From: a virus | Virus record (IMG/VR): IMGVR_UViG_3300042862_000198 | Span: 32,001-96,000 of that record | DNA length: 64,000 bases | Reading direction: 5' to 3' (one strand) | Shown: positions 3,455 through 41,044 of the stretch, one piece after another | How positions within the stretch are numbered: position 1 is the first letter of the stretch | How the letters are laid out: each line of letters opens with the position of its first letter | Made by a program: the position numbers and the translations under genes | The notes under the pieces: generated by a model | Told to the model about the DNA's origin: nothing | The model's database searches: none | What the model saw: only the letters and a program-made list of their open reading frames with translations

Positions 3455-5680
3455 ATGAATAATCTATGTCAACTTGCCCTTCAAAAAGGAGGTTCTTTAA
3501 ATTACTTAATGTTACCAGCTACTATAACAGAAGGGTTAGGTTTAACTAATCCTTCTATTTTTATACATAAGGGGCATTATTTTCTTAATCTTAGACATGT
3601 TAAATATGCATTATATCATAGTGAAGGAGAACAAAAATTTCAATCTTCATGGGGACCATTAGCATATCTTAACCCAGAAGATGATCTTACTCTTAAAACA
3701 ATTAATTATTTATGTGAATTAGATCCTAATACATTAGTTATTAATAAGTATCAAAAAATAGATACTTCTAAATTAGATGTTAAACCTATTTGGCAATTTA
3801 TTGGTCTTGAAGATGCAAGAGTAGTATATTGGGATAATAGTTTATTTATTACAGGAGTTAGAAGAGATACAACTACTAATGGAGAAGGTAGAATGGAACT
3901 TTCTACAATAGATAATAAAAATAAAGAAACTAAAAGAATTAGAATTGAACCACCTACAAAAGGTTCTTATTGTGAAAAAAACTGGATGCCTATTCTTGAT
4001 TTACCATATCATTATGTTAAATGGACTAATCCTACTGAAGTAGTTAAAGTAGATCCTATTAAAGGTATTTCTGAAACAGTTTTTTTAGTAGAACAAAAAA
4101 TAAAATTTCCAAGAGATATTAGAGGTGGTTCACAAGTTATTACAATTGGAAATTATTATGTTGCTGTAACACATGAAGTAGACCTTTGGTATAATGAACA
4201 AAAAAATAAAGATTCTCACTATTACCATAGATTTATTATATGGGATAAAAAATGGAATATTGTTGCTTATTCTTCTGAATTAAAATTTATGACAGGAGCA
4301 ATTGAATTTACTTGTGGTTTAGCTTTTGATGGTAATAATATTATATTACCATTTGGATTTCAAGATTCTACAGCTTTTATTCTTAAATTTCCTATTAATC
4401 TTTTAGAAACATTATGTAATTTAAAACTTGTAAAACCTAAAATAAAAAAATCATTAATATCGGTTACTCCAAAAAAATTAGAAAACTTTATTTATCAACC
4501 ATATAATGAAGATATTACATTTGAATTAGGAGAATATTATTTTTTAAATGGTCATTATGCATCTGCAATGTCTTTTTATTTAAGAACAGCAGAATACTCA
4601 AAAAATTCAAATAAAACATATGAAGCATTATTAATGACTGCTAAATGTTTATCTAATATTAAAAGAAGAGAAGTTACTGAATTAGGGTTATGGCTTAATG
4701 CACTTAACTTTGATACAGAAAGACCGGAAGCATATTTATTTATAAGTGTATATTATGAAAAACAAAAAAAATATAATCAAATGTATAGTTATGCTATATT
4801 AGGATTAAAATATTATGCAAATGCTAAACCAGTAACTTCTAATCTAGGATATGAAGGTAGCTATCAACTTAATTTTCAAAAAGCAGTTTCTGCTTGGTGG
4901 ATTGGTAAATCAAAAGAATCTAAAGATGAGTTTATTAAATTACTTAATAAAAGTACAGAATTAAGTGAAACATACCAAAAAATGGTACGATCTAATATTA
5001 CATTTTTAGATTCTGGACCATATCCTTTTTTAAGATATTACAAAGGATTTTATGATCAGTTAAGATATAAGTTCCCAGGATCAGAGTCTATTGAAAAAAA
5101 CTTTTCTCAAACATATCAAGATATGTTTGCATTATCTATGGTTAATGGTAAAAGAAATGGAACATACTTTGAAATTGGTGCAGCAGATCCATTTCATGGA
5201 AATAATACAGCTCTTTTAGAACAATTTGGATGGACAGGTACTTCATTAGAAATTTTACCACATGAAGTTGAAAAATTTAAATTACACAGAAAAAATGAGA
5301 TTATATTATGTGATGCTACAAAGTTTGATTACTCTATACTTAAAGGTCATATTGACTACTTACAAGTTGATTGTGAACCACCAGAAACTACTTATAAGAT
5401 ACTTACAATGTTACCTTGGGATCAATGTACTTTTGGAGTAATTACATATGAGCATGACTACTATACAGATGTAACACAATCATTTAGAAAAAAGTCTAGA
5501 GAATTTTTATTAAGTAAAGGTTATATGCTAATAGCAAGTAATATATCTCCAAATGATGATTGTCCTTATGAAGACTGGTGGGTACATCCAAAACATATAG
5601 ATAAAGATATAATTAAAAAAATGTTGGCAGATAATGATTCAACTAAAAATGCAGAAAAATATATGTTTGGAAAGTTGTAA
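3455..5680 (+). CDS. Fusion protein: beta-propeller glycosidase/glycosyltransferase-like domain, TPR region and FkbM-like SAM methyltransferase
   Basis: GLEDARV and EKNWMP propeller motifs; TPR-like helices (ELGEYY..A...Y); C-terminal SQ..QD, YFEIGAAD..GNNT, IDYLQVDCE, ITYEHD, YEDWWV. Confidence 0.7.
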   Translation: MNNLCQLALQKGGSLNYLMLPATITEGLGLTNPSIFIHKGHYFLNLRHVKYALYHSEGEQKFQSSWGPLAYLNPEDDLTLKTINYLCELDPNTLVINKYQKIDTSKLDVKPIWQFIGLEDARVVYWDNSLFITGVRRDTTTNGEGRMELSTIDNKNKETKRIRIEPPTKGSYCEKNWMPILDLPYHYVKWTNPTEVVKVDPIKGISETVFLVEQKIKFPRDIRGGSQVITIGNYYVAVTHEVDLWYNEQKNKDSHYYHRFIIWDKKWNIVAYSSELKFMTGAIEFTCGLAFDGNNIILPFGFQDSTAFILKFPINLLETLCNLKLVKPKIKKSLISVTPKKLENFIYQPYNEDITFELGEYYFLNGHYASAMSFYLRTAEYSKNSNKTYEALLMTAKCLSNIKRREVTELGLWLNALNFDTERPEAYLFISVYYEKQKKYNQMYSYAILGLKYYANAKPVTSNLGYEGSYQLNFQKAVSAWWIGKSKESKDEFIKLLNKSTELSETYQKMVRSNITFLDSGPYPFLRYYKGFYDQLRYKFPGSESIEKNFSQTYQDMFALSMVNGKRNGTYFEIGAADPFHGNNTALLEQFGWTGTSLEILPHEVEKFKLHRKNEIILCDATKFDYSILKGHIDYLQVDCEPPETTYKILTMLPWDQCTFGVITYEHDYYTDVTQSFRKKSREFLLSKGYMLIASNISPNDDCPYEDWWVHPKHIDKDIIKKMLADNDSTKNAEKYMFGKL

Positions 5681-5726
5681 ATTTTTTTGTATATTATAGA
5701 TATAACATCATTTAATATATAAAACT

Positions 5727-18217: not shown

Positions 18218-18306
18218 TTTAGCTATATATTACAAAAAATTACTTTTTCTATTTTAAATTTATCAAGTTTAATTTGTATATTGAAGTATAAACAAAAACC
18301 AACAAA

Positions 18307-19560
18307 ATGAGTAAAGAAATTAATGACCTCAATAAAGAGGTGAAAGATTCTACAACGGTAGATCTAGTAGATGTAAATATTGATGAGTTATTTGGAGTAC
18401 CTGGAGCAGAAAATATAATGCTTCCAAGTAATGAAGAAGACAAACCAAAATCTATGTTTTCTAAAGAAAATGTAGATACAACGTTCCTTGACAACCCTGC
18501 AAGACCTTCTAATAAAATAGAAGAAGCAGAAAAGAAAGCAGAAGTTGATGAGACTATTGCAGAGCTTGATAACTTAATTAGTCAAGAAGAAGATGCTGGT
18601 AATAAAGGAAGACCAAAGATTGATAAGTCTGGTCTTTATGAATTAGCACAGAAAATGATTGAAGAAGGAGCTTTAGTTGCTTTTGATGATGATAAACCAT
18701 TAGAAGAATATAGTACTAAAGACTTTAGAGAATTGTTTGAAGCTAACTTCCAAGAAAGAGAAGACAAGATTAAAAAGAATGTTCCAAAAGAATTTTTTAA
18801 TTCTTTACCAGAAGAACTTCAAATTGCAGCTAAGTATGTAGCTGATGGAGGACAAGACTTAAAAGGATTATTTAGAACACTTGCACAAGTAGAAGAAATG
18901 ATTCAATTAGATCCTTCAAATGAATATGATCAAGCTGAAATTGCAAGACAATATTTGCATGCTACAAATTTTGGAACAGCAGAAGAAATAGAATCTGAAG
19001 TTCAAGATTGGAATGACTTAGGTAAACTAGAACAGAAAGCTAACCAGTTTAAACCAAAATTGGATAGGATGCAAGAAGAGATAGTTGCAAGACAGTTAGC
19101 AGAACAAGAACACAAGAAAGAACAACAAGCATCTGCAGCAAAAGCTTATACAGATAATGTATATAATACACTTTTAACAGGTGAGTTAGGTGGAATAAAA
19201 ATTGATAAGAAAATACAAAGTCAACTTTATTCAGGATTAGTTCAACCAAACTACCCATCAATTTCTGGTAAACCTACAAATATGTTAGGACACTTATTAG
19301 AAAAGTATCAGTTTGTAGAACCAAGACATGATCTTATTGCTGAAGCTCTTTGGTTACTTTCAGATCCTGACGGATATAAAGGTAGAGTAAGAGAACAAGG
19401 TAGTAAAGAAGCTACTGAAAAAACAGTAAGAATGTTGAAAACAGAGGAATCTAGAAAAAATACTCCTTCTGCCCGTGATGATGAGCAGGAAGATAGAAGA
19501 TCTAGCAAACCTCAAAGAACAATTCCTAGAAATACTGGAAATATATTTAGGAAATTTTAA
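18307..19560 (+). CDS. Acidic scaffold-like head assembly protein
   Basis: Very acidic helical protein between portal and MCP, as in crAss-like phages. Confidence 0.65.
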   Translation: MSKEINDLNKEVKDSTTVDLVDVNIDELFGVPGAENIMLPSNEEDKPKSMFSKENVDTTFLDNPARPSNKIEEAEKKAEVDETIAELDNLISQEEDAGNKGRPKIDKSGLYELAQKMIEEGALVAFDDDKPLEEYSTKDFRELFEANFQEREDKIKKNVPKEFFNSLPEELQIAAKYVADGGQDLKGLFRTLAQVEEMIQLDPSNEYDQAEIARQYLHATNFGTAEEIESEVQDWNDLGKLEQKANQFKPKLDRMQEEIVARQLAEQEHKKEQQASAAKAYTDNVYNTLLTGELGGIKIDKKIQSQLYSGLVQPNYPSISGKPTNMLGHLLEKYQFVEPRHDLIAEALWLLSDPDGYKGRVREQGSKEATEKTVRMLKTEESRKNTPSARDDEQEDRRSSKPQRTIPRNTGNIFRKF

Positions 19561-19588: not shown

Positions 19589-21205
19589 ATGGCAACTCCA
19601 GTAATGAACAATGGCATATTCCTTCGGGATACAGCCTATGCAGCTAGTTCCCATGTGGATTCTTACCACTTGGTGAACATGCTAAAAGACGCAGAACCAA
19701 TGGACTTAGGTCCAGTGGATTTATGGGCTATGTCCCAAAAGGTAGAAATGCCTCTTTATCAAATGTCCTCATTTGGTGGGAAAAATGTAATTAATGTAGA
19801 TAATGCTCGTGGAGAGTACAAATGGCAGACTCCTGTTGTTATTGACCTTCCATACATTATTGAAGACATTGAGTCAAGTAATACATTTAAAGGTATTGAT
19901 GGTGCAACATTCCGTATTAAACTTAACAGGAGAGAATTTGGACATGGTGATATTATCACATATGACAAATACAATGGTGTTGAGATGTACATTACAGCAG
20001 ATGATATCCTTACTTTAGGTGATGGATTTATCTATACTGTACAGTTAGTAAACAATGATAACTTCAAATACCTAGATAATAAGTATTTAGCTAATGGTAC
20101 TAAAGTATTCCGTAAGGGTTCTGCCCGTGGGGAATATGGAGAAAGATTCTCTGACATTACAACAAAAACAGGATTCCGTGAATTCTATAACTTTGTTGGT
20201 GGAGCAGAAGCTCATGTACATTATTCAGTTTCTTCACGTGCTGACTTAATGATCAAAGGTGGAATGAATGCAGATGGTACAGTTCCTGTAACTGAAATCT
20301 GGAGAACATTTGACAAATCAATTGATCCATCTATTTCTTCTTTAGAAGATATGGTTAAAGTAATGGGTAAAGATAAAGTTAAGAAAGCATTTGATAATGG
20401 TGACTTATCTAGAACTTTCCTTACTGGAATGGAAGCTGCACACTTATCTAAAATTGCTTCTGACATTGAGACTTACTTAATGTGGGGACAAGGTGGTAGA
20501 GTACGTCAGGATGGTCCAGATGATTTAAGGTTATCAGTAGGTCTTTGGAAGCAGTTGGATAACTCTTTCAAAAGAATCTATAACAAGAATAACTTTACAC
20601 TTGACCTATTCCGTTCTGAAATTTATAATTTCTTTAATGGTAAAGTTGAGTTCCAAGGTCCAGATCCAAAACGTTCACTAGTTGTACAAACTGGTATGGG
20701 TGGTATGCGTATGGTAAATGAAGCTATTAAAACTGAAGCAGTTTCTTCAGGTTTATTAATTCAAGCTGCAGACATAGGAGCTATCACAGGAAAAGGAATG
20801 GACTTGAACTTTGGATTTGCATATACTTCATATGTAATACCTTTCTTAGCAAATGTTAAGTTTGTGCTTAATCCAGCATTTGATAATGTTCATACTAATG
20901 ATATTGAAAACCCAATCATTGATGGTTTCCCATTATCTTCTTATAGCTTCATTATCTTTGATATCACTGATAATACTAATGACAATATCTTCTTATTGAA
21001 GTTGTCTTGGGATAATCAATTGAAGTGGTGGTACCAAAATGGAACTATGGACTATATGGGCCGTACACAAGGATTCCAGTCTTCAGGACAATTTAATGGA
21101 TACCGTGTAATGATGTCTCAAACAATGCCAGCTATTTGGGTAAAAGACCCAACTAAAGTTTTAAAGATTGTAATGAGAAACCCAATCACTGGTGGATCTT
21201 TCTAA
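19589..21205 (+). CDS. Major capsid protein (crAss-like)
   Basis: 538 aa, synteny, high-expression codon bias (cgt, ttc, aac), strong downstream terminator. Confidence 0.85.
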   Translation: MATPVMNNGIFLRDTAYAASSHVDSYHLVNMLKDAEPMDLGPVDLWAMSQKVEMPLYQMSSFGGKNVINVDNARGEYKWQTPVVIDLPYIIEDIESSNTFKGIDGATFRIKLNRREFGHGDIITYDKYNGVEMYITADDILTLGDGFIYTVQLVNNDNFKYLDNKYLANGTKVFRKGSARGEYGERFSDITTKTGFREFYNFVGGAEAHVHYSVSSRADLMIKGGMNADGTVPVTEIWRTFDKSIDPSISSLEDMVKVMGKDKVKKAFDNGDLSRTFLTGMEAAHLSKIASDIETYLMWGQGGRVRQDGPDDLRLSVGLWKQLDNSFKRIYNKNNFTLDLFRSEIYNFFNGKVEFQGPDPKRSLVVQTGMGGMRMVNEAIKTEAVSSGLLIQAADIGAITGKGMDLNFGFAYTSYVIPFLANVKFVLNPAFDNVHTNDIENPIIDGFPLSSYSFIIFDITDNTNDNIFLLKLSWDNQLKWWYQNGTMDYMGRTQGFQSSGQFNGYRVMMSQTMPAIWVKDPTKVLKIVMRNPITGGSF

Positions 21206-21223: not shown

Positions 21224-21251
21224 AAGGAGGGGGAAACTCCTCCTTTTTTTT
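21224..21251 (+). terminator. Rho-independent terminator after MCP
   Basis: aaggagg(g)...ctcctcctt stem followed by a T-tract. Confidence 0.85.
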
Positions 21252-21304
21252 GATTTTAATTTAACTTAACCAATAATAATAATAACTAAAAACCAACAAA
21301 CAAA

Positions 21305-22321
21305 ATGGAAAATTTCACAATGGTAGAAACCGGAAAAGGATCAGCTAAAGTAACACCAATAGCTATAAGACCTTTTTTTGATTCAAGTGCTTCTAATATG
21401 GGCTTAGAAGATTATGGTATGTCTTTATTTGATGGGGTAACTCATCATGAACAATTAGCATGCTTAGAAAATAATGGAGTAGTAAGATATTTAACTGGCT
21501 TAAATGAATTTTCTCCAGAAATTAGATTATTAAATGAAGATGATAAAAATGCAAGAGTTAGAGAAATAAGATCTGCAGTATCTGAATTAGAAAAAGAATT
21601 AGCTGCAAATGTTATTGAATTAGATGATCCACAATTTTGGAATAAAGTAAAATTATTAAAACCTGATAATTCTCAATTTTGGAATAAAATTAGTATTGCT
21701 TGTGGAAATGAACCTTTATTTTTGGATCCAAAAAATCCATATGATAGAATTAAATTATATGGAATTGAAGCAGGAGGATTTTCATTGGTAGCTAAAAGCT
21801 TTGAAGATGCAAGATCAAGACCAGTTGCTCCTAAGTTTTACTTAGATAAAACAGAAGAAACAGTAATGGCTAGAACTGAATATAAGAAGTTGCGTAATAA
21901 GGCTCTTTCTGAACTTCAGAAATTATTTGATAAAAATAGTACCAAGTTATTCTACATTGCAAAAGCTGTAGATATAAATAGTACACAATATAAAAAGTCA
22001 ACACCTAATGATGTTATCTATGAAAACATGGATAACTATATCAATGGTTTAGGTGGAGAAGGTAATAAAGAACGTGCAGCTAAATCTTTTGTTGAAACTG
22101 CTAATTTAGATATGGAATCATTAAAAATCAAATCAATTGTAAGAGATTCCGTTTTTTTTAAGTATATTATAAATAAGGCAGATGGTTATATTTATCATAC
22201 TAAGTCTGATTCATTACTAGGAAGAAATGTAGCAGATGTTGGTGAGTATTTAAAAAATCCTTTAAATGAGGATATTTTAAAAGATTTAAATATTGCTGTT
22301 GAGAAATATTGGAACTCTTAA
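21305..22321 (+). CDS. Conserved crAss-like protein downstream of MCP
   Basis: 338-aa ORF in the usual post-capsid position (Y.TGL.E, FW motifs). Confidence 0.65.
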   Translation: MENFTMVETGKGSAKVTPIAIRPFFDSSASNMGLEDYGMSLFDGVTHHEQLACLENNGVVRYLTGLNEFSPEIRLLNEDDKNARVREIRSAVSELEKELAANVIELDDPQFWNKVKLLKPDNSQFWNKISIACGNEPLFLDPKNPYDRIKLYGIEAGGFSLVAKSFEDARSRPVAPKFYLDKTEETVMARTEYKKLRNKALSELQKLFDKNSTKLFYIAKAVDINSTQYKKSTPNDVIYENMDNYINGLGGEGNKERAAKSFVETANLDMESLKIKSIVRDSVFFKYIINKADGYIYHTKSDSLLGRNVADVGEYLKNPLNEDILKDLNIAVEKYWNS

Positions 22322-27211: not shown

Positions 27212-27754
27212 ATGGCAAATCATGTATTAAGTTTAGAGGTACCTACTGTGATGAACACATGTATTTTAAGTATATTTGATACAAGTGTATATTCTGAATT
27301 AATTCCTGTTAGCTGTCCATTATTAACTATTACAGTACCAGGTTTTGCATATTCTGTACAAATTCCAGTTTCACCAAATTTCAATGAAACTATAACAGCA
27401 TGTGATTTAAATTTACAAACAGAAAATTGTGGAATAAGTTATAATAATATACCTGATGGTATTTATATTATTAAATATTCAGTAGAACCATCTGATATAG
27501 TATTTGTAGAATACAATCATTTGAGAATTACAAAAGCATTAAATAGATATAATAATATTTTATGTAGAGTGGATGTTGCTGATTGTGACCCACCTTTTAG
27601 AATTAAAGAAAAATTAGAAGCACTTAGAATAATACGTATGTATCTAGATGCTGCTAAATCTAAAGTAGAAGTTTGTCATGAACCTCAAAAAGGAATGTCA
27701 TTATACAACTATGCTTTAAAACTTTTAATGAAAATGGAATGTGTAAATTGTTAA
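27212..27754 (+). CDS. Conserved crAss-like structural protein
   Basis: D.S.Y, I.VPG, IPDGIY.IKYSV.P motifs. Confidence 0.6.
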   Translation: MANHVLSLEVPTVMNTCILSIFDTSVYSELIPVSCPLLTITVPGFAYSVQIPVSPNFNETITACDLNLQTENCGISYNNIPDGIYIIKYSVEPSDIVFVEYNHLRITKALNRYNNILCRVDVADCDPPFRIKEKLEALRIIRMYLDAAKSKVEVCHEPQKGMSLYNYALKLLMKMECVNC

Positions 27755-27781
27755 ATTATTAAACCTTTAAAAACCAACCAA

Positions 27782-27994
27782 ATGAGTCAATGTTCAAATT
27801 GTAATCAAAAATTATCTTGTGGATGCCAAAGAAGAAATGCATCTAATGGAGTTCAAGTATGTAGTAATTGTTTAACTAGTTATGAATCTCAAATACAAGC
27901 TACTAATCAACCTTCTGTAATTACAGAAGCAGAAGTAAAAACAGAAGAACCTCTTCATAGAAGAGCAATGTTACAAAGAAGATTTACAAAATAA
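27782..27994 (+). CDS. Small Cys-rich (Zn-binding) protein
   Basis: CSNC...SCGCQ...CSNC; AACCAAC leader. Confidence 0.6.
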   Translation: MSQCSNCNQKLSCGCQRRNASNGVQVCSNCLTSYESQIQATNQPSVITEAEVKTEEPLHRRAMLQRRFTK

Positions 27995-28003
27995 AATTAT
28001 ATA

Positions 28004-30571
28004 ATGCCTGATACTGCTTTAATTTATTTTATTCCTTGCTGTGCTCCTGGAGATACTAGTATAGTATTTAGAGGTGCTCCTATTGCTGGTATAACAAATA
28101 ATTCTTATTGGGTTTATACAGATGCAACAGCTATTCTTGGACAAGGTACATCACCATGGGATTCATTAATCCCTGGTCAATGTTATAATATATTTTTTGG
28201 TTCAACACCAGGTATTTCTACTGCTCCAATACTTACTTTAACTGTTTCTAGTTTTAGTAATAGTGCAGCTTATTTTCAAACAGATAAAACATGTACCGCA
28301 CCTTATTGTGTGAATATTTGTAATCCTTTACCACCACAAGAATTTACAAATAGATACTATAAGTTTACACCTTGTTGTGATCCTGATAATCCAGTTTATT
28401 TTAAACCTGTTACTTTAGGAACACAGATAGCAACCGGTGTTGCAATATATTCTGCAACAATTACTCCAAATCCATATCCAACAACTGATATTTTTGGAAA
28501 TCCAGATAATCCACTTATTGCTAATTTTTGTTATAGCATAACAATGGAAAATGCAGGACCTGGAATGCATGTAACAAATGCTACTGAATGGAATAATTTA
28601 CAAGAAGCTCCTAATAATGCTTCATCAAATTTTTTATATGTAAGTCAAGGTACAAGTTGTACAGCTCCACAAGTTATTAGCAGTTGTCCAAGTTGTAATC
28701 CTTTTTGTTTTACCTTATGGTCATGTGATGGTTCTCAACCTCTTTTTACAACTTATACAGATTTAACAGCTTATATCGGAACTAATATACTTGTAAGTAG
28801 TTTAGATCCAGATGATAATATAGTTGATGTTTGTGTATTTGTTCAAGACTCAACTGGTAATAATTGTACAAATGCAATTGAAGTTGTAGTAGAATCAGAA
28901 ACTTGTGAATGTGACTGTACATGTTATACTATACTTGGTGTAATTAAATCAGTAGAATGGATTGATTGTGATGGTGTCTATCATTTAGTAGCTACACCAC
29001 AAAGTCCTTTTCAAATATGTGCCGGAGCATATCCATTAACATATCCTTCAATACCAGATAACCCTTTACAAATTATAGACAATGGTTTATGTATTGAAAG
29101 TACAATTTTTAATGATGAAACATGTGAGGAAGAAACTGTATTTAATTGTGAGCCTGCTTGTTATTTATTAGAAGATTGTTTAGATAATACAAATGTTATT
29201 TATTCTAACTCACCTTCATTACTTGGTCCTGCAAATCTTGGACAAGTAGTTACTATTGCTGGTTATACAGAATGCTGGAAAATATTAATTCCTCAAATAT
29301 GTGACTGTCCAATAAATGTAACAGTATTAACAGTAAGTGACTGTTGTGAAGCATGTTTACCTAATATAAATTATAAACTTACAACCTGTAATGATTCAAA
29401 TGTATATGTTTATACATCAGATGATTTAAGTCTATATGTTGATAAAGTTATAAGAAGAGAAGACTGTCCAGATGAATGTTGGATTGTATCTCAAATTGAT
29501 GGTAACATACCAACAGATATACCTATTGTAGTTTTAGAAGATTATTTAGATTGTGAATTATGTTATAGAAAATATTATTTGCTTGAAGATTGTATAGGTT
29601 TACAAAATGATATAATAACATATACGGATCTTTCAGATTATGTTGGTAAAGTAATTACATTAGATTGGTGTCCTGAAACATGTTGGGAAATAACTGAAAC
29701 TATTGAAGATGATACTGCTGGTATTATATCAGATATTTTAAATACATATAATGTCTGTGTTGATTGTTTAACAAATGCTTCTTGTATTTGTAGTACAATA
29801 AAAAATTATAATACTATATCACAAATATATAAGTATTTAGATTGTTATGGAATATTACAAAGTATTACATTACTTCCAAATCAAAAAAGTAATAGGTTAT
29901 GTTTAATAAGATGGTATGCACCAGAACCTTGTGATGAACTTATAGTAACTATAACATCTTCTACAGGAATTGTATCTAATATTACACTATATCAAAATAG
30001 TGTAAATCATCCAGGACCTGTAATTGTAAATGATAAACCAACTTGGAAAGATACAGGAAATAATTTATATATATATTATGATGGTGCAAAATGGATATTA
30101 AGTAAAAATTTGACTCCATCGGTATTACCTTCTGTTTATACTACTATTGGTTTTATTAACTGTAATGGAGATTGTGATTGCCCAACAGGAACATGGGAAC
30201 AAAGTTCAAGCATTCCAAATCAAGATGTTTATGTAACAACTGAACTTAAATATACAATAGAATATTTTGGTAACTGTATAAATGGTGTATGTCCTCCAAG
30301 AAAAAATAGTCAAAAATCTGTTACTCCTGGTTACAATACTCCAGGGTGTGAAGCATGGAAGTATGAAGAAATTTCTTGTAGAGCTGCAGAAGCAATGTAC
30401 AAACAAGTTTTAGAATTAAGATATGGAATATCAAATTGTTGTCCTGATGAGGATGAACAATATATTGTACAAAAAGAACTTATAGATTTAGCTGCATTAA
30501 ATGATCCAGCTTATCCATGTTCTACAAATTCATGTGGATGTAATAATGATTGTAATTGTTCAACAACATAA
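28004..30571 (+). CDS. Cys-rich repetitive structural protein
   Basis: Repeats of Y.L.DC...I.T..DLS.YV..V......CW.I...C..C. Confidence 0.65.
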   Translation: MPDTALIYFIPCCAPGDTSIVFRGAPIAGITNNSYWVYTDATAILGQGTSPWDSLIPGQCYNIFFGSTPGISTAPILTLTVSSFSNSAAYFQTDKTCTAPYCVNICNPLPPQEFTNRYYKFTPCCDPDNPVYFKPVTLGTQIATGVAIYSATITPNPYPTTDIFGNPDNPLIANFCYSITMENAGPGMHVTNATEWNNLQEAPNNASSNFLYVSQGTSCTAPQVISSCPSCNPFCFTLWSCDGSQPLFTTYTDLTAYIGTNILVSSLDPDDNIVDVCVFVQDSTGNNCTNAIEVVVESETCECDCTCYTILGVIKSVEWIDCDGVYHLVATPQSPFQICAGAYPLTYPSIPDNPLQIIDNGLCIESTIFNDETCEEETVFNCEPACYLLEDCLDNTNVIYSNSPSLLGPANLGQVVTIAGYTECWKILIPQICDCPINVTVLTVSDCCEACLPNINYKLTTCNDSNVYVYTSDDLSLYVDKVIRREDCPDECWIVSQIDGNIPTDIPIVVLEDYLDCELCYRKYYLLEDCIGLQNDIITYTDLSDYVGKVITLDWCPETCWEITETIEDDTAGIISDILNTYNVCVDCLTNASCICSTIKNYNTISQIYKYLDCYGILQSITLLPNQKSNRLCLIRWYAPEPCDELIVTITSSTGIVSNITLYQNSVNHPGPVIVNDKPTWKDTGNNLYIYYDGAKWILSKNLTPSVLPSVYTTIGFINCNGDCDCPTGTWEQSSSIPNQDVYVTTELKYTIEYFGNCINGVCPPRKNSQKSVTPGYNTPGCEAWKYEEISCRAAEAMYKQVLELRYGISNCCPDEDEQYIVQKELIDLAALNDPAYPCSTNSCGCNNDCNCSTT

Positions 30572-32926: not shown

Positions 32927-33022
32927 TATATAATACTTTAAATCAACCTATATGCTTTTTTAAAAATAAACAATAGTTGCAAGTCTTAATAAAATTTTGT
33001 ATATTATATTAATAGTAAACTT

Positions 33023-35551: not shown

Positions 35552-38500
35552 ATGAGCTGTAATAACACTAATAGTACTTGTACTAATTGTAATCATAACT
35601 ATAGTAGTTGTAATAACAAATGTGCAAAATGTGGATGTAGAGATAGTTTTTTAACTAGTCCTCCTTCATGCCCTACTCCTCAAGGTTGTCCAGATCCAAT
35701 CCCTTGTCAAGAAGTATTAAGTTCAGATTGTGTTATATACACTGGAGTTCCAATTATGTGTGATGATGTGGTAATTATACCATCTGATTCAACTATGACT
35801 GAAGCACTTATGGCTCTTGTAGATTTTATGTGTGGATGTTGTGGAACACCACAACCTGCTGTTAGTTATAATTGTCTTACTGGTGTTTGTTTTGATCCGG
35901 GAGATGGTACGGGAATTTATCCAACATTAGCTGCTTGTCAAACTGTATGTACTGAACCAACTCAACCATCTTGGAATTGTGTAAATGGTACTTGTATAGA
36001 TCCAGGAAATGGTTCAGGACAATATTTATCTTTAAGTGCTTGTCAAACTAATTGTATACCAACACCAGTTACTTATAATTGTGTGAGTGGTAACTGTGTA
36101 AATCCAGGTGATGGTTCAGGTATGTATGGTACTCTTGCTCAATGTCAACAATTTTGTGAAGATGTATATGAATCTTATGATTGTCTTAATGGAGTTTGTA
36201 GTGATCCAGGAGATGGATCAGGAGTATACCCAACACTACTAGCTTGTGATACTGCTTGTACTTTTCCACCACCTAACATTTCTTATAATTGTCTTAATGG
36301 TAATTGTACTGATCCGGGTGATGGTTCAGGTGTTTATCCTACATTACTTGATTGTACAAATGTTTGTGCTGATCCACCTCAAGTTTCTTATAATTGTTTC
36401 TTAGGTCAATGTACAGATCCAGGAAATGGTTCTGGAGTATATCCTACATTATTAGCTTGTCAAACAGCTTGTGTACCAATTGCTCCTGTTAGTTATAATT
36501 GTGTAAGTGGAAATTGTGTTGATCCTGGTAATGGTTTAGGACTTTATCCTACATTAAATGCATGTGAAGTTGTATGTAATCCTACTCCACCAATAACACC
36601 TTGTAATACAGAATGTGAATTAGCTATAATGGCACCACTTCCAGGAACTACATTAGTGTATAGTGGTTATACTATTACTAGTACTAGTAGTTATACTCCT
36701 CTTTACTCTTTTAATCCTGCTAATACATTATCTTGTAATTTACAAAATATTTTTAGTGGTGCAGTATGGTTTGATTGGGGTTTTGGACCACTTTTTCCTG
36801 GTGGGCCATTTGTTGATATACCTTTTACTTATACATTAAATTTTAGTTCACCAATTAATAATGTATATATATTTTTGCTTGGATATAGTGCTGTAGGTGC
36901 GCCAAATCCAAATACTCCTGGTGCTGAATCATTTGTATTTACAACAAATGCAGGATTTGTTGATATAACTTGTGCTGATTATTGTTGCGCTACTATTACT
37001 GGTGGAAATACTGTTACAGCAATGAATGGTCCAGGTATTAATTGTCTTCCTGATACATTTTGTATTCCTGGGACCTGTAATGGTAGTGGTGCTTTTATAA
37101 TTTCAAGTTCTCTTCCATATACATCTTTAACTATAACAGGATCAGGTGGACAGGCTGGAGTTAATATAGGTTTATGTGAAGCTCAATTTGGTACATCAAG
37201 TACAAGTACAATATATACTACTTTTGATGCTCTTCCTATACCTGCTGTTAGTTATGATTGTGTAGATTGTGAATGTGTTTCTGTAGCAGGTCCTAGTGGA
37301 CAATTTCAAACATTAAGAGCTTGTCAAGCTAATGGATGTGAAGCTAATAAATTTGTTACAACATGGGAAACTACTACAGCAAGTGAAAGTATTACTTTAC
37401 CTTATTATTTAGGAGGTAATTACGCAGGTACTATAGATTGGGGAGATGGTAATACAAGTGTTAATAGTTTTGCTACTTCTACACATATTTATGCTACTCC
37501 AGGAATATACACTGTAACCATATGTGGAAGAATTGCTGGTTGGAATTTTTCAACAACTTCTACTAGTGTTTTAAAAATTAAATCAGTAGTAACATGGGGA
37601 CAATTAACTTTAGGAGCTGATACAGGAGGTTATTTTAATGGTTGTACTAACTTAGATTTAAGTTCAGTTACAGATACTTTAGATTTATTTGGTACAGGCA
37701 TTACTAATTTTCAAAATATGTTTCTTGGTTGTACATCTATTACAACAATTAACAATATAAATTTTTGGGACACTTCAGCAATTACAAGTATGGGTAGTAT
37801 GTTTAGTGGTTGTTCATCATTTAATCAACCATTAAGTTTTGATACTTCATTTGTTACTTATATGGTTTTTATGTTCCGAGATTGCATAGTATTTAATAGT
37901 GCATTAACATTTAATACTTTTGCAGTTACTGGTATGAGTGCTATGTTTTATAATTGTTCATTATTTGATCAACCATTAAATTTTAACACTTCAGTTGTTA
38001 CTGATATGGATCAAATGTTTTTTAATTGTATTAATTTTAATTCACCATTAACATTTACAAGTACTTCATTAGTTACTGGTATGGGTGCTATGTTTTCTGG
38101 TTGCACAGCATTTAATCAAGCATTAAATTTTGATACATCAGCAGTTCAAAATATGAGTGGTATGTTTTCTGGTTGCACAGTATTTAATCAACCATTGAAT
38201 TTTAATACAGGAGCAGTAAATAATATGAATAGTATGTTTTTTAATGCTACATCATTTAATCGACCATTAACTTGGAATACAGGATTAGTTGCTACTATGG
38301 CTAGTATGTTTATGAATGCTACTGCATTTCAACAAAACATAGGTTCTTGGGATATATCAAGTGTTACTAATTTTACAAACTTTATGACAGGTAAAACACC
38401 TGCAACATGGCCTACAACATATTTTGATAATCTGTTGTGTGGATGGAGTCCACAAACAGTTGTACCTAGTCTTACAATAAATTTTGGAACAGCTAGTTAT

Positions 38501-38584
38501 ACAACTTTAACAGGAGGACCATGCAGAACTGTTTTACAAGCTGCACCAAAACTTTGGACTATAAATAGTGGACCAGGAGTTTAA
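35552..38584 (+). CDS. Fibre/surface protein with Cys-rich tandem repeats, PKD-like and DUF285-like repeats
   Basis: SSDCVIYTG N-terminal motif, 7+1 four-Cys repeats, IDWGDG, MF..C..FNQPL repeats. Confidence 0.7.
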   Translation: MSCNNTNSTCTNCNHNYSSCNNKCAKCGCRDSFLTSPPSCPTPQGCPDPIPCQEVLSSDCVIYTGVPIMCDDVVIIPSDSTMTEALMALVDFMCGCCGTPQPAVSYNCLTGVCFDPGDGTGIYPTLAACQTVCTEPTQPSWNCVNGTCIDPGNGSGQYLSLSACQTNCIPTPVTYNCVSGNCVNPGDGSGMYGTLAQCQQFCEDVYESYDCLNGVCSDPGDGSGVYPTLLACDTACTFPPPNISYNCLNGNCTDPGDGSGVYPTLLDCTNVCADPPQVSYNCFLGQCTDPGNGSGVYPTLLACQTACVPIAPVSYNCVSGNCVDPGNGLGLYPTLNACEVVCNPTPPITPCNTECELAIMAPLPGTTLVYSGYTITSTSSYTPLYSFNPANTLSCNLQNIFSGAVWFDWGFGPLFPGGPFVDIPFTYTLNFSSPINNVYIFLLGYSAVGAPNPNTPGAESFVFTTNAGFVDITCADYCCATITGGNTVTAMNGPGINCLPDTFCIPGTCNGSGAFIISSSLPYTSLTITGSGGQAGVNIGLCEAQFGTSSTSTIYTTFDALPIPAVSYDCVDCECVSVAGPSGQFQTLRACQANGCEANKFVTTWETTTASESITLPYYLGGNYAGTIDWGDGNTSVNSFATSTHIYATPGIYTVTICGRIAGWNFSTTSTSVLKIKSVVTWGQLTLGADTGGYFNGCTNLDLSSVTDTLDLFGTGITNFQNMFLGCTSITTINNINFWDTSAITSMGSMFSGCSSFNQPLSFDTSFVTYMVFMFRDCIVFNSALTFNTFAVTGMSAMFYNCSLFDQPLNFNTSVVTDMDQMFFNCINFNSPLTFTSTSLVTGMGAMFSGCTAFNQALNFDTSAVQNMSGMFSGCTVFNQPLNFNTGAVNNMNSMFFNATSFNRPLTWNTGLVATMASMFMNATAFQQNIGSWDISSVTNFTNFMTGKTPATWPTTYFDNLLCGWSPQTVVPSLTINFGTASYTTLTGGPCRTVLQAAPKLWTINSGPGV
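35861..36580 (+). repeat. Seven tandem ~105-bp coding repeats
   Basis: Protein consensus SYNC..G.C.DPG[DN]GSG.YPTL.AC...C. Confidence 0.85.
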
Positions 38585-38624
38585 TATATATTTTAATTAA
38601 AATATATTAATTTATATTATAAAG

Positions 38625-38692
38625 AAGTTACAGTTTGTTGGTTACTGTGGCAACAAGACAATACCCTCGCACTTGTGAGGGTTTTGTTTTTT
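38625..38692 (+). ncRNA. Candidate small regulatory RNA (5' stem-loop plus terminator hairpin)
   Basis: GC-enriched island in an AT-rich gap, with TATATTAT at 38613-38620 upstream. Stem 38627-34/38644-51 with loop UUGUUGGUU, antisense to AACCAACAA gene leaders. Confidence 0.5.
38658..38692 (+). terminator. Rho-independent terminator
   Basis: accctcgc-actt-gtgagggt stem followed by tttgtttttt. Confidence 0.8.
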
Positions 38693-38748
38693 ATACTATC
38701 TTTACATTTGTTAATCTCAGTAATTTTTAGTATATTAATATATAAAGT

Positions 38749-39330
38749 ATGAAAGAATTTAAAAAACCAGATGTTAAGGCTCCAAGGTTTAGGCCGGAAA
38801 CAAAGAATATTTTAACTAAAGAATTTTTTATTTTATTTAAAAAGAAATATCCAAAATATAAAACAATTGATAATATAGAGTTAAGAAAAATTATAAAAAA
38901 ATTTAATCAAGTTGTATATCAAACAGTAATTGATAATAGAGATGGTGTACAACTTCCAGAACAAATTGGATGGCTTTTTATTGGAACATGTCAACAAAGT
39001 AAAAAAGAAAATATTGACTATGCAAAATCATTAAAGTATGGATTGAGAGTAAGCAATAAAAATTGGGATTCAGATGGTAAGTTAGCAAAAATATTTTTTT
39101 CTAATCATGCACCAAAACATAAAATTAAGAATAGAGAATTTTGGAGTTTTGTAGCATGTAGAGAATTTAAAAGATCAGTTGCAAAATCTTATCCTGAAAA
39201 TTGGCAAATGTATGTAGAAGCTAATCCTCAAACTAAATTACAATATACTTATGGAAGAACTCTATATAAAAATGTAATATTAAAAAATACAGAAAAAGAA
39301 CTTCAAAAATATAATGACTTTGAATTATGA
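38749..39330 (+). CDS. IHF/HU-like protein of the crAss tail module
   Basis: LRKIIKKFN......IDNRDGVQLPEQIGWL pattern; position before the ring genes. Confidence 0.55.
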   Translation: MKEFKKPDVKAPRFRPETKNILTKEFFILFKKKYPKYKTIDNIELRKIIKKFNQVVYQTVIDNRDGVQLPEQIGWLFIGTCQQSKKENIDYAKSLKYGLRVSNKNWDSDGKLAKIFFSNHAPKHKIKNREFWSFVACREFKRSVAKSYPENWQMYVEANPQTKLQYTYGRTLYKNVILKNTEKELQKYNDFEL

Positions 39331-39989
39331 CAACAATTGGTGAAACTATATCAAGAGTAAGAAATACATTAAAAGCTGTAAAAGAAGATGCTTTTTTAAC
39401 AGATAGAATAATTTATTCTTCATTATTAAAATATGCACAAACATTAATTAAAAGAGAAGACAATCAATTTAGACTAATGAAGATTAGTTCTTTATTTAGA
39501 GTTCTTCCTTATATAGAATTAATAGATGTAGATAAAGTAGAAGCTGGTTGTCTTGGAGTATATTCAGGTTGTTATTTCAAAAGGTCAAAAGAAAAGATTC
39601 CGGGAATATTAAATGGAATGGCAGGACCTATTATACGTACTACATCTTCAATAGATGGTACTATAGAAATGTTTAGAACAGATCCAGGTACCTGGGTTTC
39701 TATGACTAAAACTACAACTTGGAAATATAATAGAAATTTTTATTTTTGGTATTTAGATGGTTACATATATTGTCCTAATGTAGATTGGGAAGCAATAAGA
39801 ATGGAAGCTATCTTTGAAGGTACCCTTGAAACATGTGATACTAAAGAATGTGAAACAAGACAAAATGAACCTTTCTCATTACCAGAATATTTATTTTCTG
39901 AAGTAGAACAATTTGTAATAAAAGAATTAACTATAACTATGTCAATTCCAACAGATGGACCTGATGATAGTCAAAATACACTTAGATAA
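39327..39989 (+). CDS. Tail ring protein
   Basis: crAss tail synteny; YFWYLDGYIY and P.D..DDS C-terminus. Confidence 0.55.
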   Translation: MTTIGETISRVRNTLKAVKEDAFLTDRIIYSSLLKYAQTLIKREDNQFRLMKISSLFRVLPYIELIDVDKVEAGCLGVYSGCYFKRSKEKIPGILNGMAGPIIRTTSSIDGTIEMFRTDPGTWVSMTKTTTWKYNRNFYFWYLDGYIYCPNVDWEAIRMEAIFEGTLETCDTKECETRQNEPFSLPEYLFSEVEQFVIKELTITMSIPTDGPDDSQNTLR

Positions 39990-41044
39990 TGGACTTTAAT
40001 TATACTTTAAGATACAGAACTTTTGATTCAGTCTTAGAAGATGTATCAATAGACTTTAATACTTTTGCTTTAGAAAATATGATAGAGCCTCAACAGCTTA
40101 TCAAGTTAGCTAAAAAATTAAACTATGATTTAGGTTTGAGAATAAATCAAACTAAAGAAGTTGTATTAGAGGTATGCCATGGTAAAGTAAAGTTACCAGA
40201 TGACTTTTATGTATTTAATTATGCATTACTTTGTGGTTCTTATACTGAAAGTGTAGGATACAATGGAATGGTTGGTGGAACTAACATACAAGAGGTTCCA
40301 TATGTTGAAACTCCAGCTAATGTTAATGTATGTGCACCTATCACAATTAATTGTTCTACATGTAATTCTAATCCATGTAATCATACTGCAGCTTGTCCTA
40401 CTAATACATGTGCTTCAGAATGCCCCACACCAACTATTCCTACGTCTTTTGATGCACTTAATCCTTCTGGAGATACTTGTATAAGGCCAAGAGTTTTTAT
40501 GAACTGTAAGGGAGAAAAATCTGAACTTATTCAAATAGTAAATACTGGGCAAACAAGAACCTATAGTACACTACTTCCATTAAGAATGAAAACTAGTCAA
40601 GAAATTTCTTGTGACTGTCCAAACTTATATGTAAATACTTTAGATGAAGGTTGGATAAAAGGTGGTTTTTTATTCACTACACTAGATACCTGTAAAGTTT
40701 ATTTAAATTATCAAGGAGCTATGGAAGATGATAATGGAAACTTATTAGTTCCAGATCATGATCTTATAAATGAATATTATGAGTATGCTTTTAAATCAAG
40801 AATTCTTGAGAACTTATTAATGAATGGTGAAGATGTTTCACAAAGAATGCAGTTAATAGAAGGTAGATTAAAAGCTGCTAGAAATCAAGCACTTAGTTTA
40901 GTTAATACTCCAAACTTTAGTGAACTTGAAGAAATCTGGTGGACAAATAGAAGAGCTATGCATAGTAAATATTATGATATGTTTACAAGTCATAGACCAA
41001 ATAATGAACATCCAAGAAGTTTTAGAAACACAAGAGTTATATAA
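39989..41044 (+). CDS. Tail tubular/ring protein
   Basis: KLPDDF, VYLNYQG..ED..G.LLVPD motifs; Cys-rich insertion. Confidence 0.6.
   Translation: MDFNYTLRYRTFDSVLEDVSIDFNTFALENMIEPQQLIKLAKKLNYDLGLRINQTKEVVLEVCHGKVKLPDDFYVFNYALLCGSYTESVGYNGMVGGTNIQEVPYVETPANVNVCAPITINCSTCNSNPCNHTAACPTNTCASECPTPTIPTSFDALNPSGDTCIRPRVFMNCKGEKSELIQIVNTGQTRTYSTLLPLRMKTSQEISCDCPNLYVNTLDEGWIKGGFLFTTLDTCKVYLNYQGAMEDDNGNLLVPDHDLINEYYEYAFKSRILENLLMNGEDVSQRMQLIEGRLKAARNQALSLVNTPNFSELEEIWWTNRRAMHSKYYDMFTSHRPNNEHPRSFRNTRVI

Follow-up and report, generated by a model that had tools for sequence, protein, structure and literature searches.

Base-pairing sRNAs of bacteria include a type that is derived from the 3′ UTRs of mRNAs, such as CpxQ, SroC, DapZ, and MicL. 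GcvB is a free-standing enterobacterial sRNA, which acts next to Shine–Dalgarno sites. Among phage RNAs, P1 c4 pairs through loop sequences and lies on the same transcript as its target, and P1 c4, P22 sar, and lambda OOP all serve lysogeny or immunity decisions. Hosts of the Bacteroidota type largely do without Shine–Dalgarno pairing. For GcvB, passages of the literature describe a G/U-rich region that silences C/A-rich (ACA) translation enhancers, the target element itself being stimulatory for translation (PMC3879156). According to sections of a further publication, phage regulatory RNAs are mostly cis-antisense or aimed at host genes; lambda OOP is listed there as cis-encoded and P22 sar as "trans", although the only target of the latter is the ant mRNA (PMC12197685). 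In crAss-like phages, as far as the available text of the phi14:2 study goes, gene regulation is known at the level of transcription only, through RNA polymerases and promoters, and no regulatory RNA of these phages is described in the literature searched at title and abstract level.

Here, we describe a candidate regulatory RNA from a phage of this kind. The window, by which we mean the whole stretch of 64,000 nucleotides that was analyzed, comprises bases 32001–96000 of a 122,176-bp virus record and contains a hairpin and an intrinsic terminator directly downstream of a tail-fibre gene (Table 1). With moderate confidence, we favor the reading that this hairpin acts as a regulatory RNA from within the fibre mRNA's 3′ UTR and that its loop would pair in trans with boxes in front of virion genes and lower their translation.

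In its anatomy, the element appears closest to the 3′-UTR-derived sRNAs that use the terminator of their parent. Like these, it would lie in the 3′ UTR of a coding mRNA, share the intrinsic terminator of that mRNA, and present a short, conserved, single-stranded seed that complements the start regions of several mRNAs made elsewhere. Unlike these, it is a candidate RNA of a virulent-type crAss-like phage, would be aimed at the phage's own virion genes, carries its seed in a hairpin loop, and has no sequence or Rfam relation to them. In its mode of action, the closest known system appears to be GcvB, judged from the passages cited above, since both set a G/U-rich segment against a C/A-rich element just upstream of several mRNA starts, in the phage by sequence complementarity only. 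By analogy with the GcvB target element described in these passages, it is plausible that the AAACCAACAAA box is itself a translation enhancer. In contrast to GcvB, the phage element is a 3′-UTR hairpin without an Rfam match at the gathering score, and its box abuts the AUG. With P22 sar and lambda OOP, as they are summarized, it would share the principle of a small phage RNA that pairs in or close to ribosome-binding regions and so regulates phage genes; it differs from these two and from P1 c4 in that its putative targets are several virion genes, 11–20 kb away and in other transcription units.

Genomic context of the element

The window has a GC content of ~30%, and its long ORFs all lie on the + strand. 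Pfam searches identified the crAss-like tail ring proteins CrAss_Ring_2 at 39327–39989 and CrAss_Ring_1 at 39989–41044, PHROGs searches placed the major head protein at 19589–21205, and the gene order agrees with that of Cellulophaga phage phi14:2. The host phylum is presumably Bacteroidota, and near-identical DNA was found in lake-water metagenome runs. A blastn search of 37600–39700 against GenBank phages returned one weak, unrelated match only. The 193-aa and 338-aa proteins of the window (see below) had no tblastn match in the same set, so that the clade appears to be without a sequenced isolate among the GenBank phages searched.

The gene downstream of the hairpin, which encodes the 193-aa protein, starts at 38749 and is the first of the next operon. 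Its product has no match in PHROGs, Pfam, or PDB sequence searches. By gene-order position, it corresponds to phi14:2 g074 ("virion structural protein"), and the phi14:2 "IHF subunit" gene corresponds to the following gene, which encodes CrAss_Ring_2. An earlier note on this DNA had called the gene downstream of the hairpin IHF-like; the IHF annotation belongs one gene further on.

Table 1. Features of the hairpin–terminator locus and of its candidate targets (window coordinates)
Feature	Position	Strand	Remarks
Candidate target box AAACCAACAAA	18296..18306	+	11 nt, abuts ATG 18307; gene of a 417-aa acidic protein between portal-like and capsid genes
Candidate target box AAACCAACAAAC	21290..21301	+	12 nt, 3 nt before ATG 21305; gene of a 338-aa virion-module protein, right behind the major capsid gene
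Shorter candidate target box AAACCAAC	27771..27778	+	8 nt, 3 nt before ATG 27782; gene of a 70-aa Cys-rich protein
Promoter-like box TTTGTATATTA	32996..33006	+	exact match in a gene gap; the fibre transcript probably starts here
Final gene (1010 aa) of the tail-fibre operon, with DUF285 repeats	35552..38584	+	Pfam DUF285, E 8.4e-75
Spacer from fibre stop codon to hairpin	38585..38626	+	holds TATATTAT and a conserved AAGAAG just 5′ of the stem
Putative anti-leader hairpin	38627..38651	+	stem 38627–34/38644–51, loop 38635–43 (UUGUUGGUU)
Hairpin stem, GTTACAGT with ACTGTGGC	38627–38634 with 38644–38651	+	8 pairs, two of them G–U
Hairpin loop core TTGTTGGTT	38635–38643	+	9 nt
CAACAA box adjoining the stem	38651..38656	+	complements the 5′ half of the loop
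Predicted intrinsic terminator	38664..38692	+	stem-loop 38664–38681, then U-run to 38692; would terminate the fibre mRNA together with the hairpin RNA
Promoter-like region (TTTG ... TTAGTATATTA) of the next operon	38707..38737	+	conserved in relatives; exact match at 38727

A hairpin–terminator unit behind the fibre stop codon

The stem, the loop, the terminator, and the promoter-like letters TATATTAT (38613–38620) all lie in the window sequence exactly where they had been placed before. The unit contains no ORF and follows the stop codon of the fibre gene. RNAfold predicts both hairpins in 38585–38748 (z = −4.62), and none of 200 shuffled sequences folds as well. A covariance model built from the main clade of relatives (see below) has a single match in the 64-kb window. 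The earlier note recognized no described RNA family in the unit, and Rfam 15 agrees: the whole window has no match at the gathering threshold, GcvB included, and the three matches around the element score 20–22 bits vs thresholds of 50–60.

Two further candidates were examined and rejected. A second copy of the loop sequence in the same genome (29102 of G000:C1, outside the window) lies inside a collagen-like Gly-X-Y coding repeat (~28950–29260) and is a chance match rather than a second element. A packaging or terminal site was discarded because in G004, a 126,226-bp genome with direct terminal repeats, the hairpin is internal, at 87,702.

The spacing between stop codon and hairpin bears on how the RNA is made. 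The preceding stop codon is only 12–31 nt away from the loop core in 77 of 92 distinct contexts, and most of the larger distances are artificial, with a small gene skipped by the 100-aa ORF cut-off or a second core match picked. The stop-to-loop spacer of this window (53 nt, with the stem starting 43 nt after the stop) is the longest apart from these artefact cases; the distance from stop codon to hairpin is mostly 2–20 nt in the relatives, and a long spacer occurs only here and in locus L001. The position of the stem, a few bases past the stop codon in most relatives, argues that the element is borne on the 3′ UTR of the fibre mRNA. The letters TATATTAT are absent from the relatives, which, together with the closeness of the hairpin to the stop codons, suggests that they are a local accident and not a conserved promoter.

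These observations weigh on the proposal, made in the earlier note, of an independent sRNA gene, in which a promoter at 38613–38620 drives a discrete RNA of ~65 nt that ends at the terminator. The layout of hairpin and terminator does resemble that of a classical sRNA, and TATATTAT has seven letters (TATATTA) in common with the promoter-like box GTATATTA. However, the 38613 site is not among the matches to the promoter-like pattern with at most one mismatch, and the short distances between stop codon and loop leave no space for an intergenic promoter in most relatives. A conserved promoter inside the upstream genes is also unlikely, as these genes are mutually unrelated. We therefore regard a promoter-driven unit as very unlikely; what was found in its place appears to be part of the 3′ UTR of the fibre mRNA, an outcome named beforehand as speaking against a discrete sRNA.

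The likely start of the fibre transcript is given by a promoter-like pattern, TTWGTATATTR, which has four exact + strand matches in gene gaps (5686, 18273, 32996, and 38727). It resembles the host-RNA-polymerase middle and late promoters described for phi14:2, and the available text of that study has host RNA polymerase reading the middle and late genes from a tripartite promoter upstream of this gene block. The TTWGTATATTR boxes may thus act as promoters. From these copies, the fibre transcript probably runs from ~33000 to the terminator at 38692. A strong terminator at 21224–21252 lies between the targets 18307 and 21305, both of which belong to transcription units other than that of the fibre. 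A longer common motif, TTTG followed by TCAxxTATTTTWGTATATTA, was seen before several operons (38700–38748, 18250–18306, 32980–33022, and 5680–5726). For the 193-aa gene of some relatives, the ATG lies only ~5 nt past the promoter-like box (GTATATTAATATG), which suggests very short or absent leaders there.

Conservation and covariation of the hairpin in relatives

The main clade consists of 57 IMG/VR loci with a relative of the 193-aa protein, and all 57 contain the hairpin. It lies just upstream of this relative in 56 of them. In the remaining locus, L052, it is found 1.5 kb farther upstream, separated by an inserted phosphoesterase gene, with a wholly different stem (TCAGAAT/ATTCTGA) and the same loop. 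In a sister clade of 69 loci, reached via the orthologue in genome G006, 66 have the hairpin, and the other three (L233, L259, and L270) are without upstream DNA. The 66 comprise 51 matches of a flanked-stem scan and 15 variant hairpins seen by eye; the scan gave 52 loci, from which the match in L233, judged to be a chance match inside coding sequence, was left out. Sister-clade stems differ again (GTGGTGG/CTACTAC, GTGATGG/CTATCAC, and GATAG/CTATC). A terminator follows 3′ of the hairpin in every aligned relative, at a distance of 10–25 nt, and hairpin and boxes are both kept in more distant genomes (57–63% protein identity). A calcineurin-like phosphoesterase gene with its own promoter separates the hairpin and terminator from the 193-aa orthologue in the sister clade and in G001 (L052 1466–3000; L206; L207); phi14:2 has such a gene, g075 (L326 18229–19152), in the corresponding gap, and the window does not.

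The stem covariation and loop conservation that the earlier note proposed to look for are both present. In an alignment of the 46 distinct main-clade sequences, 98.1% of cells are paired, with two-sided changes in 10 of the 14 pairs, and none of 500 shuffles reaches these values; slid controls of the same alignment pair at 31–58%. Helix 1, the stem of the hairpin, is 97.8% paired, with changes on both sides in five of its seven pairs, and helices 2 and 3 of the terminator are 99.6% and 95.7% paired, again with changes on both sides. The nine letters of the loop core TTGTTGGTT are invariant in 46/46 sequences, while the stems are replaced wholesale. RNAalifold independently recovers both helices in the main clade. 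When the sister clade was aligned by a model built from the main clade only, 97.0% of cells paired and 13 of 14 pairs had changes on both sides, in an alignment that is by construction fitted to the structure. The covariance model found 48 matches in 70 other sources, every one of them on the gene strand and at most one in each source. Taken together, the comparison indicates that the element is a conserved structured RNA.

The strand that folds can be told from the G–U pairs, which occupy 67 of 322 helix-1 cells in the main-clade alignment. On the other strand they would be A–C mismatches, which identifies the folded strand as the sense strand and points to an RNA rather than a DNA cruciform.

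The same comparison speaks to a reading in which the junction is conserved as a recombination handle beside the rapidly changing fibre genes and the loop regulates nothing. In its favor, the upstream gene differs among close relatives, with a different, unrelated gene ending in place of 35552..38584, whereas the hairpin, the terminator, and the next promoter stay alike. Homology, however, would keep the letters of the stem, and it is these that are swapped by compensating pairs around a fixed loop; the boxes described below would also be left unexplained. We hold this reading to be extremely improbable.

Close to the stem, the AACA columns of the CAACAA box are nearly invariant in the main-clade alignment, and the box is missing in L052. 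A CAACAA-type box flanks the stem in both clades, on the 3′ side in the main clade and on the 5′ side in the sister clade. Such a box may provide an alternative, self-masking fold of the hairpin. A pseudoknot between the loop and the CAACAA box was rejected by inference, as 0–1 nt would need to bridge a 7-bp stem.

Loop-complementary boxes at the starts of virion genes

The complement of the loop was found, as claimed before, in front of ATG 21305, ATG 18307, and ATG 27782; the matches extend over 12, 11, and 8 nt, respectively. The 11-mer AACCAACAAAC occurs exactly at 21291–21301 and with 10/11 letters at 18297–18307, and AACCAAC occurs at 27772–27778. The box at 18296..18306 is preceded by the promoter-like box at 18273. 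The gene list used for the following counts consists of 123 crude ORFs of the 122-kb genome, with start codons picked by simple rules. Matches to the loop complement of at least 8 nt of the 12-mer within the last 25 upstream bases occur at genes 21305, 18307, and 27782 only.

Enrichment of the motif at start codons, another point raised earlier, depends on what is counted. Raw numbers are weak against chance: there are five matches to the 11-mer with at most one mismatch vs 2.06 expected, and 5 of 100 shuffles reach five. Position is not weak, as three of the ten occurrences of AAACCAAC on both strands of the 122-kb genome fall into the −25..−1 windows of the 123 crude genes, which make up 1.26% of positions. 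When these 123 leaders were ranked by RNA duplex energy with the hairpin, gene 21305 came first (−15.6 kcal/mol) and gene 18307 second (−15.0 kcal/mol), against a median of −7.4 kcal/mol.

The box is tied to the same genes in relatives. Each distinct leader was counted once, and the motif was read from the window at its coordinates. In leaders of the 338-aa gene, the box 7-mer and 9-mer are both present in 49/49; in leaders of the 417-aa gene, the 7-mer is found in 23/23 and the 9-mer in 21/23; and in those of the 70-aa gene, the 7-mer is found in 17/22. Across all 80 loci with the 338-aa gene, the box adjoins the ATG, often with a second copy ~15 nt upstream. By comparison, the 7-mer is absent from all 182 leaders of five neighboring control genes: portal-like (0/49), capsid (0/39), 232-aa (0/38), 571-aa (0/29), and 180-aa (0/27). 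Many sister-clade boxes match the loop over only 7–8 nt. The antisense relation to the leaders of three virion genes is very unlikely to have arisen by chance.

Loop and boxes also appear to be absent together. In bases 50001–100000 of phi14:2, no hairpin was found (the best model score, 15.1 bits with E 0.24, lies on the strand opposite to its genes), and no box precedes g092 or g090. This co-absence, in a phage of the same gene order, supports a link between loop and box. G007, in turn, keeps an 11-bp hairpin with the usual loop and has no box in its 338-aa and 417-aa leaders. No leader among the 151 crude genes of this genome is exceptional in duplex energy, and the box 6-mer is present in four other leaders, one of them before a 47-aa ORF; either the targets have moved in this genome or the hairpin has a second role.

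The products of the target genes are poorly characterized. PHROGs, Pfam, and PDB sequence searches returned nothing for the 338-aa, 417-aa, and 70-aa proteins, and the ESM Atlas gave only "hypothetical protein" clusters and, for the 417-aa protein, a scaffold lead (0.82) below threshold; this protein is scaffold-like by position only. The 338-aa protein (21305–22321) is 79–98% identical across the 80 loci. Its AlphaFold model (pLDDT 83.5) has no clear fold match in the PDB, with a best Foldseek E of 0.51 and a best VIA-align Z of 6.3 over ~60–85 residues. The 70-aa protein has several CxxC-like pairs, and the preceding ORF has a CxxC-like motif at its very C-terminal end (27212–27994); from these motifs, the two neighbors may be a small zinc-binding pair of virion-module proteins.

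Compatible variation of loop and box

In the G006 subgroup, loops read TTTATTGGTTTT, TTTTATATTGGTTTT, or TTTAATTGGTTTT, not TTTGTTGGTTTT. We compared seven sister-clade genomes of this A-type, in which a loop G is changed to A, with eight G-type genomes. In 23 boxes that belong to A-type loops, the box letter facing the changed position is T in 11, A in 11, G in one, and never C; in 17 boxes that belong to G-type loops, it is C in six, T in five, and A in six. In the main clade, the facing letter is C throughout. At the 417-aa gene, the loop–box pair shifts from G with C to A with T, and in G027 the variant loop and the leader of this gene were seen by eye to be complementary over 13/13 nt. 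T-boxes under G-loops are plausible wobble intermediates. Such a compatible change of loop and box is what intermolecular pairing would predict, although the A-type subgroup is probably one lineage and the change may reflect one or two evolutionary events. In an energy swap of the loops, G-type genomes paired better with their own loop at 11/16 sites. At the 14 A-type sites, the swap gave no support (5 better, 5 worse, and 4 equal), because G–U wobble lets the usual loop fit T-boxes as well.

Two further explanations have to be weighed against these patterns. The motif AAACCAACAAA could be a double-stranded DNA site of a DNA-binding regulator, read in either orientation, whose copies drift along with the specificity of the protein; the occurrence of both orientations and the concerted change in one subgroup would fit. 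Such a site would not account for an inverted copy that always lies exactly in the loop of a covarying hairpin, about one-fifth of whose stem cells are G–U and thus mark one folded strand. Nor would site identity produce T-boxes with G-loops but never C-boxes with A-loops, a pattern that wobble pairing explains, and the boxes abut start codons rather than promoters. We give very little credence to this explanation.

The second explanation holds that a phage or host protein reads the loop on the nascent transcript, for terminator read-through in the manner of lambda nut/boxB or for 3′-end protection, and that the match to the boxes is secondary. It would fit the place where the hairpin is always found, at an operon border and 10–25 nt ahead of a terminator, and it would agree with G007, which has the hairpin without boxes on the two main genes. 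An RNA-library contig in X16, which comes from an L001-like relative, covers 38622–38738 and extends to both sides across the terminator, which would also fit, but it may represent DNA carry-over; the RNA-library data are patchy Logan contigs from four of six runs (shares 0.08–0.14), which do not resolve RNA ends or levels. The position before a terminator would fit a nut site; complementarity to leader boxes is not a feature of such sites. The exact complement of the loop at three gene starts and at none of five control genes is left unexplained by protein binding, as is the lack of boxes with C opposite a loop A, and no candidate binding protein was identified. We consider this role unlikely.

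A candidate mechanism of loop–box pairing

In the preferred reading, pairing in trans from the fibre 3′ UTR, the hairpin would be carried on the tail-fibre mRNA and would use the same intrinsic terminator. The G/U-rich loop, which is single-stranded and reads UUUGUUGGUUU in most relatives, would pair with the A/C-rich box AAACCAACAAA on two to three virion-module mRNAs from other transcription units, where the boxes, at −2 to −13 of the start codons, lie in unstructured A-rich leaders within the ribosome landing zone. Since the boxes fall inside the footprint of the ribosome, repression of initiation is the most likely outcome; pairing would block the loading of 30S subunits and lower translation. 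In this way, the output of the scaffold-like 417-aa, the 338-aa, and the 70-aa proteins would be tied to the amount of fibre transcript. We infer the pairing of the hairpin and leader RNAs and its repressive effect; the active form may be either the entire tail of the mRNA or a ~70-nt piece processed from it. What the comparison of relatives shows is the structure, the conservation of loop and boxes, the gene specificity, the strand, the 3′-UTR position, and the compatible change in one subgroup.

The earlier idea of a trans-acting, loop-seeded sRNA survives in part: a structured, ORF-less RNA whose loop is antisense to a conserved leader motif of virion genes appears to exist, but not as a self-contained unit with its own promoter. 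A role in timing is not obvious, because the regulator and its targets seem to use one promoter type (TTWGTATATTR). More tentatively, it is possible that environmental crAss-like phages run a dedicated post-transcriptional circuit, in which the phage-specific A/C-rich box is a translation enhancer of chosen virion genes in hosts without Shine–Dalgarno pairing and the single anti-box hairpin of the fibre mRNA switches these genes down as fibre transcripts accumulate. Such a circuit would couple head and tail production through RNA alone and would be conserved in a large uncultured clade.

A conserved trans-acting RNA, if confirmed, would be the first example for this abundant phage order. It would also offer a handle on the choice of translation starts in Bacteroidota-type hosts. 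The prediction is sharp and cheap to test, as it involves an 11-nt loop, three boxes, and a natural G-to-A/C-to-T pair.

In L175 (G004:C1, ~119300–119340), a distant relative, a box, an 8-nt loop, and an anti-box form one hairpin, which is located away from the fibre junction.
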